Shown here in pieces: positions 1 to 40,692 of a stretch of DNA of 64,000 nucleotides. Location of the stretch: the NCBI GenBank assembly GCA_964565775.1, contig CAZMGB010000003.1:30079-94078 (forward strand), read 5' to 3'. The DNA is from an uncultured Dehalococcoidia bacterium (GTDB taxonomy: Bacteria; Chloroflexota; Dehalococcoidia; DSTF01; JALHUB01). The stretch's first letter is position 1; each line of letters opens with the position of its first letter. Below the pieces are notes generated by a model, which saw only the letters and a list, made by a program, of their open reading frames with translations, was not told where the DNA came from and ran no database searches. The translations under genes were made by a program, and so were the position numbers.

Positions 1-660
1 CGCAAGGTGAAGAACATCAAGGTACCCCAGCACGTCATCCGGCCCTTCTCCGGAGATGACATCGCCCGACTGTTGGGCAGCTGCCAAGCCTCGAACTTCA
101 AGGGCGGCCGCGACCGCGCCATCATCTTCACTTTGCTGGACACAGGCCTGCGCGTCGGCGAGCTTACAGCCCTCGAACTGGCCGACCTCGACTTTGAAAC
201 CCAGCGCCTTCACGTCCGCCACGGCAAGGGGAACAAGGGACGCGTCGTCCGCTTCGGGGAACAGGCCAAGGAGGCGATTGAGCAGTATCTCCGGGAACAT
301 AGGGGGACGGAGCCCGGGCCCCTCTTCCTGACCTGTCGCCGGCAGCCCCTCTGCACCAACGCCGTCCGCACCATCTTCCGGGACCTGAGCCACAAGGCCG
401 GCGTCGATCACGTGCACCCCCACCGCTTCCGCCACACCTTCGCGACCTGGGCCATCGAGATGCATGCCCGCGAGATAGACGTTCAGTACCTGCTGGGCCA
501 CTCGACCCCCGCCATGGTCCGTCGCTACACTGCCACCTATGACGCCGAGAAGGCGGCCAGGGCGCACGCGATGTTCAGCCCAGCCGACCACCTGGAGGAA
601 CGGCTGGCTGAGAGCCCGGAGACGCCGCCCGCTCTGGCCCGGTATCCGGAAGCCCGTTAG
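1..660 (+). CDS. Tyrosine recombinase / phage-type integrase, C-terminal catalytic domain (5' end outside window)
   Basis: Frame is open from nt 1. Catalytic-domain motifs are present: R..HxxR ('HRFRHTFATW'), 'LLGH', and the Tyr in 'VRRYTATY'. 'RPFSGDDIARLL' is the typical start of the catalytic domain. The N-terminal SAM-like domain is missing, so the gene is cut by the window. Confidence 0.85.
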   Translation, partial: RKVKNIKVPQHVIRPFSGDDIARLLGSCQASNFKGGRDRAIIFTLLDTGLRVGELTALELADLDFETQRLHVRHGKGNKGRVVRFGEQAKEAIEQYLREHRGTEPGPLFLTCRRQPLCTNAVRTIFRDLSHKAGVDHVHPHRFRHTFATWAIEMHAREIDVQYLLGHSTPAMVRRYTATYDAEKAARAHAMFSPADHLEERLAESPETPPALARYPEAR

Positions 661-711
661 AGCCGCGGTCCCCGAATCTAGCGCCCACGTGGGCCGAACC
701 TAACGGCGTGC

Positions 712-756
712 CTTTTAATCCGGGTGTCCTGGGTTCGAGCCCCAGAGGGCCCACCA
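712..756 (+). repeat. 45-nt tRNA 3'-half-like direct repeat, copy 1 (att-like): anticodon-loop-like CUUUUAA, variable loop, T-arm CTGGG-TTCGAGC-CCCAG, acceptor 3' strand AGGGCCC-A-CCA
   Basis: Perfect 45/45 identity with 40648-40692 (read directly). The sequence folds as the 3' half of a tRNA (a Lys-UUU-like loop through the CCA end). The 5' flank here is not tRNA-like. It lies 52 nt downstream of the integrase stop. Confidence 0.8.
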
Positions 757-786
757 AACCAGCCTTTTCGAATCTGATTTCGGGGG

Positions 787-812
787 AGGAGCGCATAGCA
801 AGCGCTCCTTTT
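787..812 (+). terminator. Intrinsic-terminator-like hairpin (8-bp stem AGGAGCGC/GCGCTCCT, 7-nt loop) followed by TTTT
   Basis: Perfect inverted repeat with a downstream T-run on the + strand, after the integrase/att repeat. Confidence 0.45.
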
Positions 813-920
813 CGGCTTTGAAGACGACCGGATTTCTTCGTCGATGCCGAAGGGGCAATACCAGTCCTCCAGTCTCCTTGCCCGGCAGACCGAGACGCCG
901 AAAGGAGGCACACGTCATCA

Positions 921-1310
921 TGGCTGTTCGGAGGATCGGTTGGCGCGAGATGGAGAAGAGCGACATCCCCTTCGGCAAGCTGCGCGACGCCTTCGTCGTC
1001 TACAACAAGACCACCGGCAAGTCCCCCAACACCATCCGCTGGTACGAGGAGCGCCTGGAGCTGTTCGAGCGGTTCGTTGGGCCCAGGGCCACCCTGGCGG
1101 ACGTGGCGGTACCCAACGTCCGCGCTTACATCGCCCACCTTCAGGACCGGAAGACGAGGTACGAGAACAACCACTTCATCCGCAACAAGGAGGGGGCGCT
1201 ATCGAGCTCCTACATTCAGGGGTTCGCACGTGCCCTCCGGGCCTTCGCCACCTGGCTCCACGAGGACGGCTGCACCGACACCAACGTCCTGAAGCCCCTG
1301 AAGCCGCCGT
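921..1310 (+). pseudogene. Integrase N-terminal SAM-like domain fragment (truncated; no catalytic domain follows)
   Basis: 'TIRWYEERLELFERFVG...VRAYIAHLQDRK...YIQGFARALRAFATWLHEDGC' matches the phage-integrase N-terminal SAM-like domain. Similarity ends at '...LKPLKPP', directly abutting the 3' end of the convergent cytochrome gene. The missing continuation would resemble the start of the 1-660 fragment ('KVKNIKVPQ...'). Confidence 0.6.
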
Positions 1311-37973: not shown

Positions 37974-38313
37974 AGCCGTTGCCGCTTTGGCCGTGCTCGA
38001 CGCCTGCTGGCCGCCGCGGCCTTCGCGCGGACCGAGCATGCCACTCGGTGGCTATGTTCGGGTGAGGCAACGTCTGCCAGACCGGCGGTCTCGTATGAGA
38101 CCTGCCGAGGATAGGGAGGCCAGACTGGAAAGCGGGACTCCCCCGACCGGGCTTCGAGGCCCTCCAGCCGGAACGGTGCCCACCTCGGACCGCCAGGTCA
38201 AAAGGGGAATTCCGGCTGGAGGGCGAGCTCGGGCTTCGCCGTCGGTCGCGGGCAACTGGGAACCGGGAGAGCGACATCAGCCAGCCTCGTTAGAAGGGAG
38301 GGGGTCTTAGCCG

Positions 38314-39240
38314 ATGGGCAGAATCGCCAACGACATCACAGAGCTGATAGGCAACACGCCGCTCGTCAGGCTGAACAAGATGGCCGCAGGCCTAGAGGCC
38401 ACCGTTGTGGCCAAGTTGGAGTCCTTCAACCCTTGCGGCAGCGTCAAGGACAGGATCGGCGTGTCGATGATCGAGGCCGCCGAGAGAGACGGCCGCATCG
38501 ACAACGACACGGTCATCGTCGAGCCAACGAGCGGCAACACGGGCATAGCCCTGGCCTTCGTCTGCGCCGCCAAGGGCTACCGTCTCCTCCTCACCATGCC
38601 GGACACAATGTCCCTCGAGCGAAGACAACTCCTCTCGGTCTTTGGGGCGGAACTGGTGCTTACGCCGGGGGCGGAGGGAATGCCTGGCGCCGTCCGGAAG
38701 GCTGAGGAGATCGTCGCCAGCAACCATCGCGCTTTCATGCCGCAGCAGTTCGTCAACCCCGCGAACCCCCTGATCCATCGTGAGACTACGGCCGAAGAGA
38801 TATGGCGCGACACGGACGGCCAGGTGGACATCCTAGTGTCCGGAATAGGGACAGGGGGAACGATCACCGGGGTGGCCGAGGCCATCAAGCAAAGGAAGCC
38901 GCAGTTCAAGGCCATAGCCGTGGAGCCGAGGGATTCTCCGGTTCTTTCAGGCGGCAGGCCAGGCGCTCACAAGATCCAGGGCATCGGCGCCGGCTTCGTC
39001 CCGGACGTGCTGAGGATGGACCTGGTGGATGAAATCATCCAGGTCAGCAACGAGGACGCGGGAGAGGCGGCGAAGGAACTGGCCAGGCATGAAGGGATCC
39101 TGGCAGGCATATCTTCGGGAGCGGCAGCCTGGGCGGCTCTCCAGGTCGCCAAGAGGGCGGAGAGCAAGGGCAGCTTGATTGTGACGATCCTGCCTGACAC
39201 CGGCGAACGTTATCTCACGACCTGGCTCTTCCAGCCTTGA
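38314..39240 (+). CDS. cysK: Cysteine synthase A (O-acetylserine sulfhydrylase)
   Basis: PLP-Lys motif '[11 protein letters not shown]'. '[10 protein letters not shown]'. '[10 protein letters not shown]'. 308 aa. Confidence 0.9.
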
Positions 39241-39549
39241 GGTAGTGTGCTGACATCCAGGGGGCCGGGCGCGGAGAGAGACCCGACGAGAAGTGTAGGT
39301 CACTTCCGTTGCGTGAGCGGCCAGGGCGCGGAACCGCGGTTGCGCTCGGCCCCTTCTTCGTTGGGGCGGGCGGGCCTCCCCAGCCCGGAGTCGTTCGCCT
39401 GGCATGAAGTCAAGGGCAGGAAAGATGTATCCTAGAGGGACATGACTATGCCTGCCGGGTAACCCCCTCGATACCCTGTCTTCGCTATCGTGTGGGGGAC
39501 AGGGACAGCCTGTCTATTCCTTTCGGCCACAAGATAAGGAGGCGCAAAC

Positions 39550-39921
39550 GTGTTCAAAGGTTGGCCGCCCTGCGACATCTGTGGCAAGCCTGTTGGCGAA
39601 AGGGATGGGACTCTCTCCGTCTGCTATCGCCGCATCGCCGCCTTCGACACGGCCCTCATGGAGTGGGAAAAGGAGCACCCTCACAAACTCGTCGACATGG
39701 GTTATCCTACCTTCCCCAATTCCGTTCCCTGGTTCTGGGGCCACAAGACCTGCTCCCCCGAAGCCTGCGATGGCAGCTGCAACTTCTGGATCGACGCCGT
39801 GACCCTGAACAGCGAGGGCAAAGTCCTCAACATGACCCTCCGCCTCCTGGAGAAGCCCTGGTTCCCAAACACCAATTGGGAACACGCCGTTCGCCGCCTA
39901 TATGACCTACCCCACGCCTAG
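39550..39921 (+). CDS. Hypothetical Cys-rich small protein
   Basis: SD 'AAGGAGG' 8 nt before the GTG. 'PPCDICGKPV...CYRR...CSPEACDGSCNFW'. No family recognised. Confidence 0.45.
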   Translation: MFKGWPPCDICGKPVGERDGTLSVCYRRIAAFDTALMEWEKEHPHKLVDMGYPTFPNSVPWFWGHKTCSPEACDGSCNFWIDAVTLNSEGKVLNMTLRLLEKPWFPNTNWEHAVRRLYDLPHA

Positions 39922-40533
39922 GAAGAATGCGACCGACCAAACGGGGCGGTTCTGAGATAGAGGAAGGCGCAGCAGAGCGATATTCCCTGTCCCTCAACGG
40001 AGCTGTGGGGTGCCAATACTCCATCCGTATCTGGGCACTTCGAACTGACCTTGTGCCTGGTACAAGAGCACAGGCCACGGATCCCTGAGCGGTGGCATCC
40101 GACCCTCTGTGTGATAGGCAGAAGTTCCCCGGTCCCCTTGCAGACCGCTCTGCGGCCAAGATAGAATCCCCTCGTCAGCCGATGGGCAGGGCGACTAGCG
40201 GATTCGCCCATATCCCAGGGTCTCTGGGTTGCCTCAGCACACTTCGGCAGGCAAGTTCATGGTCGATTGTTGTCGAAGGGACCCACAAGCCCTTGGCCGA
40301 GCCGCTAGGCAGACGATTCAAGAGGACAGGAGGCCCGAAAAGTCGCACCGCTTGAATCGACTCGCCGGGGAAGAGATCGCTGAATACAAAACAGGAGTCT
40401 GCCGCGGGATTTCTGCCCTGTTGAATGGGGTTCAAGAGGATGCGCGAAGACCCCTTCTCTTGGTTCTAGCGTGCCTGACGCATCGGCAGGCTCGTACGAG
40501 CAGCCAGTATGGCCCCGAATCCGGCACTCCGGC

Positions 40534-40692
40534 GGGCCCTCAAACCAGGGCGCCGGAGTCGGCTGGAAATCGGTCGGTTTCCGGCGGTCAAGACAGCGGA
40601 ATTCGAATCTGCGTTAGAGGCAGAAGGCTCGACCTCAAAACCCAGGACTTTTAATCCGGGTGTCCTGGGTTCGAGCCCCAGAGGGCCCACCA
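40534..40692 (+). ncRNA. tRNA-like structured element: perfect 7-nt complement (GGGCCCT) to the 3' acceptor strand lies 149 nt upstream of a canonical T-arm/acceptor/CCA terminus; not a canonical tRNA or recognisable tmRNA
   Basis: The 3' 45 nt fold as anticodon loop (CUUUUAA, Lys-UUU-like) through T-arm, AGGGCCC-A-CCA. The 5' region lacks a D-arm and has nested hairpins (GGCTCGA/TCGAGCC; CCCAGGA/TCCTGGG). A further 600 nt upstream (39922-40533) is ORF-poor and hairpin-rich. Confidence 0.35.
40648..40692 (+). repeat. 45-nt tRNA 3'-half-like direct repeat, copy 2 (identical to 712-756)
   Basis: 45/45 identity. Identity begins exactly at the first nucleotide of the anticodon-loop-like CUUUUAA and ends at CCA. 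Confidence 0.8.

Follow-up and report, generated by a model that had tools for sequence, protein, structure and literature searches.

The pSAM2-like AICEs are small integrative elements of the actinomycete type with int, replication-relaxation and FtsK-like genes, and the vcrA genomic island of Dehalococcoides mccartyi has ssrA as its integration site. The vcrA island places respiratory genes on an integrated island in the same phylum as the DNA studied here (PMC10117805). Bordetella petrii carries the clc-like islands GI1-GI3 in tandem at a tRNA-Gly gene (PMC2717098). PYG1 of Pyrococcus yayanosii, which is flanked by 44-bp tRNA-Gln repeats, exemplifies islands with a complete tRNA gene at one end and a partial one at the other (PMC9897764). 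The SSV-type ('suicidal') archaeal integrases have their site inside the int gene, and the halves of one gene stand at opposite ends of the provirus (PMC8371274).

We analysed a 64-kb stretch of DNA from an uncultured Dehalococcoidia bacterium (the window, meaning the whole stretch). A repeat search of the window yielded a sole long exact repeat, the 45-nt T3, whose copies at 712-756 and 40648-40692 are spaced 39,936 nt apart; a 45-mer repeat in 64 kb is expected by chance at ~1e-18. An earlier note on this DNA had described the two copies as identical and as the anticodon-loop-to-CCA segment of a tRNA-Lys, and both statements hold: T3 is nt 32-76 of intact tRNA-Lys(UUU) genes on related Chloroflexota contigs, such as L002 (tRNA-Lys(ttt) at 1064-1139, T3 match at 1095-1139) and L003 (tRNA-Lys(ttt) at 4791-4866, T3 match at 4822-4866). 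At neither window copy was a tRNA called by ARAGORN or Rfam. The T3 repeats are integrase attachment-site duplications of the 3' part of tRNA-Lys, left by mobile elements inserting successively. The features around the two copies are as follows.

1..660, + strand: int-A, the C-terminal 219 codons of a tyrosine integrase, with the catalytic domain (PF00589, E=5e-38)
661..711, + strand: 51-nt spacer from the int-A stop to the repeat, the putative P arm of element A; nucleotide homology to L004/L005 continues through it
712..756, + strand: T3 copy 1, 45-nt att core, exact repeat, tRNA-Lys(UUU) positions 32-76
757..919, + strand: D2 arm, which stands at the left end of int-B-type elements and includes the int-B leader, by homology to L006, L019, L038 and E15
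920..1310, + strand: int-B', the N-terminal 130 codons (SAM-like domain, PF02899) of a truncated second tyrosine integrase
40554..40616, + strand: U-like arm, a homologue of conserved sequence upstream of intact tRNA-Lys genes, holding TCGAATCTG at 40603-40611
40617..40647, + strand: decayed tRNA-Lys 5' half (31 nt) in register, matching at 13/31 positions without gaps or 15/30 with gaps
40648..40692, + strand: T3 copy 2, exact repeat, att core and putative right junction (attR) of the island
40693..40773, + strand: D1, the initial ~81 nt of the downstream flank native to unoccupied intact tRNA-Lys genes, by homology to related loci

The window resembles B. petrii, where several islands (there related to one another) also stand in series at one tRNA gene, direct repeats of the tRNA 3' end bound each island, the scar of an earlier island is used by a later one, and the cargo is metabolic. 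The B. petrii composite islands can also absorb core-like DNA, including the original tRNA gene. However, B. petrii has a repeat of 18 bp from the tRNA 3' end, whereas that of the window is 45 nt long and starts in the anticodon loop; the B. petrii integrases are highly related, whereas those of the window are ~30% identical; and in the window island the integrase and every transfer gene have been lost. Experiments have demonstrated excision and transfer in B. petrii, whereas the window island is described here from its sequence. With PYG1 the window shares a direct repeat of 44-45 nt that is a portion of a tRNA gene. In islands of the PYG1 type, one copy belongs to a genuine tRNA, and the other is a fragment liable to be misannotated as one, whereas both window copies are fragments, as they would be with element A between the island and the intact gene. 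The vcrA island is likewise a Chloroflexota respiration module on a site-specific island with direct repeats of the end of a small-RNA gene, but its target is tmRNA rather than tRNA-Lys, and its cargo is a reductive dehalogenase rather than multihaem cytochromes and Ccm. Island polymorphism between strains is documented for Dehalococcoides, whereas the window island is known from sequence comparison.

The gene ahead of copy 1, already taken for an integrase in the earlier note, is cut by the window edge, with its N-terminal ~107 codons lying to the left; its stop codon is at 658-660, followed by 51 nt before copy 1. The int-A piece is 92% identical to residues 108-309 of P0001, and its R..K..HxxR..H..Y columns are invariant in the integrase alignment. 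Homologues of int-A end directly before a T3-only copy in L004, L005, L021 and L037, and we identify int-A by its sequence as the integrase of an element A that sits left of the window. The spacer at 661..711 is not a tRNA 5' half (9/31 matches). The claim that neither copy has a convincing 5' half fails for copy 2, where a decayed 5' half is recognisable together with the conserved upstream flank of tRNA-Lys genes.

Positions 712-1309 (~600 nt) are ~80-82% identical to L006, L019, L038 and E15, loci in which D2 lies between T3 and a full int-B that begins 163 nt after T3. The D2 arm contains a terminator-like hairpin read from the sequence (GGAGCGC at 788-794 and GCGCTCC at 802-808, then TTTT), which was not called by a terminator scan. 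The motif TCGAATCTG has just two occurrences in the 64 kb, at 768-776 (12 nt right of copy 1) and at 40603-40611 (37 nt left of copy 2), and the arms that bear it are the two that would be joined in an excised circle. The N-terminal SAM-like integrase fragment reported after copy 1 is present, with its ATG at 920, 163 nt downstream (given before as 921-1310 and 165 nt). It shares 72-74% identity with P0010, P0033 and the E15 integrase over their residues 2-129; nucleotide homology to full-length integrases stops at 1308-1316, and the frame reads on into unrelated sequence as far as a stop at 1400-1402. The junction of int-B' with the cytochrome is also found in an independent assembly (Logan contig L001). 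The joins across the 45-nt repeat come from the source assembly alone, the Logan contig ending within T3. Because int-A always lies just upstream of a T3 scar and int-B ~163 nt downstream of T3, copy 1 would serve both as the right-hand boundary of element A and as the left-hand boundary of a B-type element.

The earlier note had suggested that the two integrase pieces could be halves of one gene, split by its own integration at an SSV-like attP inside int and now flanking copy 1. The window does have, as the SSV-type systems do, a tyrosine integrase that targets a tRNA gene and pieces of integrase close to att copies (PMC8371274); furthermore, 'LKPLKPP' followed by 'RKVKNIKVPQ' is superficially continuous, and the fused sequence can be aligned to full-length integrases over 92% of its length. 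Nevertheless, we give this explanation almost no credence. The N fragment does not end exactly where the C fragment starts: relative to full-length homologues, 6 aligned residues overlap, with 'KPLKPP' opposite 'RKVKNI', so that a fusion would contain an insertion seen in no homologue. The pieces also belong to different families (92% identity to P0001 for one, 72-74% to int-B loci for the other), and identity between the int-A and int-B families is ~30-33% (30% for P0001 vs P0010); the C piece is 33% identical to int-B loci, and the N piece matches P0001 over 38 residues only, at 32% identity. Neither reading frame includes the repeat, and both families have full-length members at the same positions relative to T3. 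Thus, unlike an SSV-type locus, the window has its site outside the frames, fragments of two genes and a bacterial host, and integrases that split their own gene have been reported only from archaea (PMC8371274). What looked like a split integrase is, to judge from these alignments, two unrelated integrase genes.

At the right-hand copy, window 40554-40737 is 78% identical to L034 5935-6117. The arm left of copy 2 gave local-alignment z values of 6-10.6 with 10 native upstream flanks and of <1.4 with P arms from other T3-only copies, and D1 is 83-88% identical to the post-T3 stretch in ~20 loci, 12 of which have an intact tRNA-Lys. Decay at copy 2 is asymmetric, with 42-50% of the 5' half and 45/45 positions of T3 conserved; a decayed 5' half with a well-kept T3 is also seen in E15, L013, L011 and L004. 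Because only T3 must stay perfect to rebuild the tRNA, this asymmetry fits an element arm rather than a decaying resident tRNA.

The exact 45-mer is present in 36 public loci, in which integrases of several families use T3 as their attachment core and tandem arrays are frequent. Among the distinct junctions, 12 have an intact tRNA and D1 (unoccupied sites), 10 an intact tRNA and D2, D3 or D4 (left junctions with three arm types), 9 a lone T3 and D1 (right junctions) and 4 a lone T3 and D2 or D3 (internal junctions of tandem arrays). A complete B-type element, E15, lies in Ga0315277_10000721 (repeats 14,997 nt apart, ~15 kb). The locus begins with an alpha/beta-hydrolase, U, an intact tRNA-Lys and D2, continues with int-B (363 aa), a Replic_Relax protein, a P-loop protein and a DNA methylase, and closes with an arm whose 5' half has decayed, T3 and D1; the alpha/beta-hydrolase is also upstream of tRNA-Lys in L002 and L003. 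By its Pfam domains, E15 resembles the AICEs: its tyrosine integrase sits beside a tRNA att site, and it also encodes a protein of the Replic_Relax family, a large P-loop protein and a DNA methylase, whereas the window island has the first 130 integrase codons and no other core genes. The order int-A, T3, D2 arm, int-B recurs in L004 and L006. In L004, int-A is followed by T3, a D2 stub, an arm whose 5' half has decayed, a T3 copy with 2 mismatches and D1; this is the layout of the window with only 0.58 kb between the T3 copies, and B-type elements thus do decay in place. L018 and L006 have a common left-hand element, behind which a B-type element stands in L006 but not in L018; B-type insertion into a T3 scar is therefore an independent event.

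Between the copies, the window contains the following genes.

1321..22000: respiratory block 1 (Pfam)
1321-2961, - strand: NapC/NirT-type multihaem cytochrome (Pfam)
Within 1321..22000: a Zn-ribbon protein, a cytochrome c7-like protein and two cytochrome b561-type proteins (Pfam)
7753-10360, - strand: HK/RR pair 1 (Pfam)
Within 1321..22000: further multihaem cytochromes, TPR and NHL proteins (Pfam)
17763-21932: multihaem/FG-GAP protein, 1389 aa (Pfam)
22641..28025, - strand: two more LuxR-type response regulator/GAF histidine kinase pairs
Within 28266..36669, + strand: System I cytochrome c maturation (CcmE, CcmF, unassigned ORFs, CcmA, CcmB, CcmC)
Within 28266..36669, + strand: a TlpA/ResA-like thioredoxin and a CcdA/DsbD-type protein
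37638..39240, + strand: rhodanese (37638-37973) and CysK (38314-39240), the last recognisable genes ahead of copy 2

As had been stated, the multihaem cytochromes, three LuxR-type two-component pairs, Ccm genes, rhodanese and CysK are all inside the repeats, and qNOR and central metabolism are outside, where we found two acyl-CoA synthetases and glycogen genes. The 39.9 kb contain no mobility genes besides the integrase stub. The comparison of GC and tetranucleotides proposed by the earlier note did not set the island apart: GC3 is 0.806 in the island vs 0.808 in the flank, the small GC excess of the island lies wholly at codon position 2, and tetranucleotides classified 13/20 chunks correctly, which 6/19 circular shifts do as well. 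This test has low power, since the integrase fragments themselves have host-like GC3. Window 1365-10925 is syntenic with the related contigs L047 and L048 (70-79% nt), in which the NapC-type cytochrome is followed by other genes, not by int-B or T3; the junction at ~1310 is therefore secondary. No empty site between the genes that flank the island here was found, relatives at 84-91% nt having only Acs and ACS1 in common with the window.

We think it fairly probable that the window shows the right portion of an array in which integrative elements stand in tandem at one tRNA-Lys(UUU) gene, and that the interval is island DNA. Two successive integrations at the same tRNA, one of the options raised before, fit here, given that the layout recurs in L004 and L006 and that a complete 15-kb int-B element is bounded exactly like the window interval. 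The target gene would lie left of the window; no intact tRNA-Lys is visible within it, as expected if the left end of the array is outside. Several tyrosine integrase families of the lineage would recombine within T3, from the anticodon loop to CCA, each insertion rebuilding the tRNA at the left junction and leaving a T3-only copy at the right one. Element A would be mostly outside the window and end with int-A and copy 1. Copy 1 would double as the left junction of the second, B-type element, followed by the D2 arm and int-B, and copy 2 would be its right junction, with a vestigial tRNA locus (upstream flank and decayed 5' half) before it and D1 after it. A later deletion, ending 11 nt past the stop codon of the NapC-type cytochrome, may have removed int-B from codon ~131 onward with the replication and transfer core, and the island would then be unable to move on its own. 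Both ends may stem from one insertion with which the cargo travelled, in the order of events given here. However, the arm left of copy 2 is unlike the right arm of the complete B-type element and like native tRNA-Lys upstream flanks, so the two ends may stem from different elements.

It is conceivable, although we consider it unlikely, that the block is ancestral chromosome that was never mobile, with unrelated scars at its ends: elements that had entered a tRNA-Lys to the left would have left behind only copy 1, D2 and the int-B stub, and copy 2 would be either an independent, degenerate tRNA-Lys locus or a scar from an element that has since disappeared. The host-like composition, the lack of mobility genes, the cytochrome cluster syntenic in L047 and L048 without adjoining int or T3, and the full tRNA-locus context of copy 2 (U, decayed 5' half, T3, D1) agree with this. 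However, a resident tRNA should lose both halves equally, and here the 5' half retains 13-15/31 and the 3' part 45/45. Moreover, integration never alters the sequence left of a left junction, so that T3 and D1 behind a non-functional 5' half mark a right junction, as in E15, L013 and L004. An ancestral block also needs a deletion of the rest of B and its right junction that ended exactly at a gene boundary.

Many of the same observations (the integrase stub at one end, at the other end the whole tRNA-locus remnant of U and 5' half, the lack of mobility genes, host-like composition, and synteny with chromosomal-looking clusters) would follow if the block were core DNA, formerly beside the tRNA-Lys gene, captured in a composite island. 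Capture could have come by aberrant B-type excision with a breakpoint at int-B codon 130 that took along U and the tRNA together with upstream genes, or recombination could have used other repeats of the tandem array, as has been shown for Bordetella petrii GI1-GI3 (PMC2717098). We consider this quite unlikely, because the heavily decayed 5' half beside two perfect T3 copies points to an old arm whose T3 was kept by selection in a still-moving lineage, which is hard to square with an integrase lost at the moment of capture; in addition, no sampled locus with the native upstream flank has CysK, rhodanese or Ccm genes upstream of tRNA-Lys. That the assembler threaded the integrated path through the repeat, when the true molecules were an island-free chromosome (int-A-T3-D1) and a 39.9-kb circle (U-5' remnant-T3-D2-int-B'...), with or without the integrated form beside them, is highly improbable. 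It is true that the sole independent assembly (Logan, k=31) stops inside T3, exactly k-1 = 30 nt in, and that int-A-T3-D1 junctions are real in L021 and L037. Yet standard metagenome assemblers (k>45, paired reads) resolve a 45-nt repeat, island and flank proteins from both sides of copy 2 occur together on one 220,884-nt NCBI contig, and a 40-kb circle with neither replication genes nor integrase would not persist.

With the tandem array as the preferred reading, the 39.9 kb between the copies are most likely island DNA, now immobilised. Stacked islands at tRNA-Lys are an ordinary kind of genomic island, and the cytochrome/Ccm block of this bacterium probably lies inside such a stack.

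The window holds a single long exact direct repeat, a 45-nt sequence (T3) found at 712-756 (copy 1) and again at 40648-40692 (copy 2), with a spacing of 39,936 nt. The earlier note had reported this repeat and assigned it to the anticodon-loop-to-CCA segment of a tRNA-Lys. The repeat is real, non-random and exact at both positions, and the assignment was borne out by a scan of one genome per prokaryotic species, in which T3 was present in two Chloroflexota MAGs. In both, it corresponds to positions 32-76 of an intact tRNA-Lys(ttt), from the first anticodon-loop base to the encoded CCA. 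The direct repeats bounding the block are the 3' portion of a tRNA gene, as is characteristic of islands. Neither ARAGORN nor Rfam called a tRNA at copy 1 or copy 2, no tRNA was found elsewhere in the window, Rfam returned no family on the window and the att regions, and no additional degenerate T3 copy with 16 or fewer mismatches lies within the island. We expect the intact tRNA-Lys to the left of element A, whose integrase (int-A) is cut by the window edge, beyond the window.

The frame at 1-660, which closes with a stop at 658-660, encodes the catalytic domain of a tyrosine recombinase (PF00589, E=5e-38), and its catalytic residues R181, K206, H271, R274, H297 and Y306 (numbered as in the fusion described below), which are invariant in alignment A1, are all present in the window. 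The ORF from ATG 920 (int-B') encodes an N-terminal SAM-like integrase domain and lacks the catalytic domain. Copy 1 lies between them, 51 nt past the int-A stop and 163 nt ahead of the int-B' start. The earlier note had recognized both pieces correctly and had read them as one split gene, the N-terminal fragment ending exactly where the catalytic one begins. We used a fusion of both pieces as a search query and aligned the matches with MAFFT. The catalytic piece was 92% identical to the integrase P0001 (residues 108-309 of 328) and 33% identical to P0010-type genes. The N-terminal piece was 74% identical to the integrases P0010 and P0033 (residues 2-129 of 320-385), with only a 38-residue match at 32% to P0001; P0001 and P0010 share 30% identity overall. 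In the pairwise alignment of P0001 and P0010, residues 108-113 of the former (RKVKNI) stand opposite residues 124-129 of the latter (KPLKPP), and therefore the window fragments do not abut but overlap by six aligned positions. The MAFFT alignment gave the fusion a six-residue insertion missing from every homologue. Judged by these alignments, the pieces are two separate genes, int-A cut by the window edge and int-B' truncated in the genome. An SSV-type arrangement, which the note had also considered, needs the site to lie inside the integrase gene and has been reported for archaea alone (PMC8371274). We tested its two defining features, an att core in frame and halves of one gene, and neither was present: the core lies outside both frames, and the overlapping pieces belong to different families. 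We rejected a split or SSV-like integrase on these grounds.

Because int-B' is truncated after codon 130, it is not functional. Nucleotide homology to four int-B loci ends at 1308-1316, and a convergent NapC/NirT-type cytochrome gene has its stop codon at 1321-1323. The Logan contig L001, which is 100% identical to window 727-15545, provides independent support for this int-B'/cytochrome junction; the joins across the 45-nt repeat rest on the source assembly, as the Logan contig, the only match in exact look-ups made to extend the window leftwards, breaks in T3. We also observed that a 1.8-kb contig (L038) ends exactly at the int-B position of the window truncation (~1311) and that the window starts within six codons of the homologous int-A position. 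This match may be coincidence, or the boundary between N-terminal and catalytic domains may be a point of divergence of assemblies or genomes in this community.

A T3 scan of JGI metagenomes yielded 34 more loci. The distinct junctions were sorted by the sequence on either side of T3.

Distinct T3 junctions (D1, native downstream flank; D2, D3 and D4, left-end arms of elements)
Intact tRNA followed by D1 (..CAGAATCGCCCCGAACCTGTAAGCC..), n=12: unoccupied sites
Intact tRNA followed by D2, D3 or D4, n=10: left junctions of elements
T3 only, followed by D1, n=9: right junctions
T3 only, followed by D2 or D3, n=4 (L004, L006, L036 and window copy 1): internal junctions of tandem arrays

Each of the arms D2, D3 and D4 precedes an integrase of its own. 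In this lineage, at least four arm/integrase types share one tRNA-Lys(UUU) gene as a hotspot, and tandem arrays are common there. In L004 and L005, which hold the nearest relative of int-A, the integrase gene stops 18 nt short of a T3 copy outside any tRNA, and genes of mobile elements lie upstream (a ParB-methyltransferase fusion, DUF2924 and HTH proteins). For int-B, the nearest relative is in L006 (a locus of the same type as the context of P0033); it begins 163 nt past T3, and the entire sequence that leads from T3 to its start is conserved in window 712-920; the 163-nt distance of int-B' is typical of the family (L006, L019, L038 and E15, a complete B-type element). L018 and L006 share the element to the left of T3, which is followed by D1 in L018 and by D2 and int-B in L006; therefore, a B-type element is able to insert into another element's scar. 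The earlier note, with its integration scars and its option of successive integrations, was right in kind; its most striking detail, the split integrase, was wrong. The shared element (L006/L025/L049, 1-9900) is a defence-type island encoding a 1698-aa DEAD/Helicase_C/MZB protein, GmrSD_N, DUF2779 and an HTH_3-Peptidase_M78 protein, and L018 carries its right arm directly ahead of D1. When the proteins of all window genes were compared with all 36 T3 loci, only the integrases matched, and a tblastx comparison gave only noise. T3 was absent from IMG/VR and neither integrase had a close viral relative; a phage origin was rejected on this basis. The survey is useful for delimiting islands in these MAGs and for avoiding misannotated tRNA fragments and "split" integrases.

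A complete B-type element, E15, served as the template for interpreting the window. It was read from contig Ga0315277_10000721, whose adjacent pieces L027 and L032 were joined and oriented.

Features of E15, in order
Left side: aminotransferase, alpha/beta-hydrolase, U motif (the conserved flank upstream of tRNA-Lys), intact tRNA-Lys
After tRNA-Lys: D2 and the 363-aa int-B
Core: Replic_Relax-family protein, 629-aa P-loop protein, DNA methylase, HTH protein
Right side: an arm ending in 31 nt of decayed tRNA 5' half (18/31), then T3 and D1

The repeats of E15 are spaced 14,997 nt apart, and the element looks like a small integrative mobilizable or conjugative element rather than a phage. Window 1311-40647 contains no counterpart of its Replic_Relax, P-loop or methylase genes.

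With int-A on its left and D2 plus int-B' on its right, window copy 1 therefore serves both as the right-hand junction of element A and as the left-hand junction of a B-type element. To the right of copy 2, the first 81 nt are D1, 83-88% identical to about 20 loci. The earlier note had found no convincing tRNA 5' half at either copy. This holds in that no tRNA is called, but copy 2 bears a decayed one: the 31 nt before it agree with the tRNA 5' half at only 13/31 positions without gaps or 15/30 with gaps, and ahead of this remnant lies a clear U-motif homologue (z = 6-10.6 against ten native upstream flanks). Since only T3 must stay exact to rebuild the tRNA at integration, a perfect 3' part beside a ruined 5' half has the look of an element arm and not of a resident gene in decay. 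E15, L013, L011 and L004 show this asymmetry too. L004 is the closest parallel: int-A and T3 are followed there by 40 nt of D2, by AT-rich filler and by an arm with a decayed 5' half, after which come a second T3, with two mismatches, and D1. Its two copies are 0.58 kb apart. The window has just two occurrences of the 9-mer TCGAATCTG, one 12 nt to the right of copy 1 and one 37 nt to the left of copy 2; they are on the two arms that would join in an excised circle.

D1 itself extends for ~184 nt after tRNA-Lys in many related contigs (L023, L039, L033, L035, L034, L020, L008, L010). At its end stands a perfect 3' half resembling that of tRNA-Gly(CCC) (..CTTCCCAAGCAGAGGGTCGCGGGTTCGAGTCCCGTTTCCCGCTCCA), and ~120 nt before this lies an acceptor-like GCGGGAT. 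No gene was called at this end by ARAGORN or Rfam, although the ARAGORN intron mode models one copy as an intron-containing tRNA, and in L007 a canonical tRNA-Gly(ccc) (1669-1742) follows D1. The D1 tail could be an unrecognized long tRNA-like RNA or the remnant of a second att site. The window retains only the first 81 nt of D1 (40693-40773), which places a separate breakpoint in the flank to the right of copy 2.

Pfam confirmed the gene content that the note had listed between and outside the repeats, and beyond the integrase stub no mobility gene was found in the 39 kb between the copies. Comparison of island and flank, as the note had suggested, revealed no foreign signal in GC, GC1-3 or tetranucleotides: GC3 was 0.806 in the island and 0.808 in the flank (p=0.70), tetranucleotide usage failed to separate the two, and the small GC excess of the island sits at codon position 2, where it reflects amino-acid content. 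Deviant composition is usual in tRNA-targeting islands, not obligatory. Because the integrase fragments are themselves host-like in GC3, the comparison has little power here. Having given no signal, composition was dropped as evidence of foreign origin.

A search with the NapC-type cytochrome showed that contigs L047 and L048 share synteny with the first 10 kb of the block, at 70-79% nucleotide identity. In these contigs other genes, not int-B, follow the NapC-type cytochrome gene, and the junction at 1310 is therefore secondary; neither contig reaches an att site. Both carry a glutamyl-tRNA reductase gene (hemA), absent from the window, between the Zn-ribbon and NapC-type cytochrome genes. 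The sample with the window's exact sequence (Logan SRR14802573: L001, L048) holds a second version of the cytochrome cluster at ~79% nucleotide identity, and L047 and L004 are both from JGI 3300057055.

Several further features of the block were observed. The gene at 17763-21932 encodes a 1389-aa protein with several CXXCH multihaem modules and seven FG-GAP repeats, the latter visible as ~200-nt periodic DNA repeats at 20.3-21.6 kb. A 137-nt non-coding block at 37432-37568, just upstream of the rhodanese gene, is 84% identical to L036 (reverse strand 8350-8486), 200 nt upstream of a T3-only copy; its fold is a closed multi-branch structure (-51.8 kcal/mol, z = -2.35), and it has two AGATTC motifs and no Rfam match. 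A second non-coding block, 169 nt long (40272-40439), lies 210 nt ahead of copy 2; an intergenic region of L047 (reverse strand 1528-1695), 8 kb beyond the NapC-type cytochrome gene, matches it at 81% identity. The window block has a perfect 9-bp hairpin stem (CGATTCAAG..CTTGAATCG), although its overall fold is not unusual (z = -0.75), and two copies of the 9-mer TCAAGAGGA, of which the window has five versus 0.5 expected. In several related contigs, the U motif ahead of tRNA-Lys genes contains the related TCAAGAGGAC.

None of the 12 contigs in which an intact tRNA-Lys runs directly into D1, the flank of copy 2, shares the window's flanking genes. A search via ACS1 did not find an empty site with the window's own neighbours: relatives at 84-91% nucleotide identity share only Acs and ACS1 and have no SatP and no tRNA region. 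The acetyl-CoA synthetase (43353-45272) clusters at 90% identity with proteins of which some are labelled as from Gemmatimonadales MAGs, and its synteny with these relatives covers this gene and its neighbour only. This could mean that the two genes are themselves mobile or that the bin labels are not reliable.

Taken together, the block is probably an immobilized metabolic island in a tandem array. We infer an order of events in which the tRNA-Lys gene left of the window would have received a B-type element carrying respiratory genes, and element A would then have inserted into the rebuilt tRNA; the order could also be the reverse, with B entering the scar of A. A deletion would have removed int-B from codon ~131 together with the element core, ending just past the cytochrome gene. 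Because both T3 copies are identical (45/45) though neither is in a tRNA, these events would be recent relative to the decay of the 5' remnant, and the remnant would therefore be old baggage of a still-moving lineage.

The claim that the block is cargo is weakened by its lack of mobility genes, its host-like composition, the synteny with L047 and L048, the native-like arm, the failure to find an empty site with its own neighbours, the absence of an intact tRNA-Lys from the window and the dependence of the joins across T3 on the source assembly. The arm left of copy 2, which resembles native upstream flanks rather than the E15 arm, would fit two other histories. The two ends could come from different array members fused by an internal deletion, or, by analogy with Bordetella petrii, for which composite islands taking in core DNA are documented (PMC2717098), the block could be core DNA that such an island incorporated. 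We consider it improbable that the block is a self-contained, still-mobile respiration cassette moving as a satellite, with cytochromes, sensors and a complete Ccm system between two retained att arms and perfect T3 copies. In that case integrases recognizing the same 45-nt core, either int-A next door or those of B-type elements elsewhere in the community, could excise and integrate it in trans, or it could leave jointly with element A as a composite, and cytochrome-c-based respiration would be transferable among these Chloroflexota.

Islands stacked in tandem at a tRNA gene, with repeats of the tRNA 3' part as their boundaries, are well known (PMC2717098), as are tRNA fragments marking right junctions (PMC9897764). 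The mechanism of integration is a textbook one. The locus is of interest mainly for the genes it carries. If the block is island DNA, the capacity for making and using c-type cytochromes may have come in one step, in a lineage in which qNOR, the other respiratory enzyme in the window, is independent of Ccm. Such an island would bear on the spread of electron-transfer metabolism among uncultured Chloroflexota.
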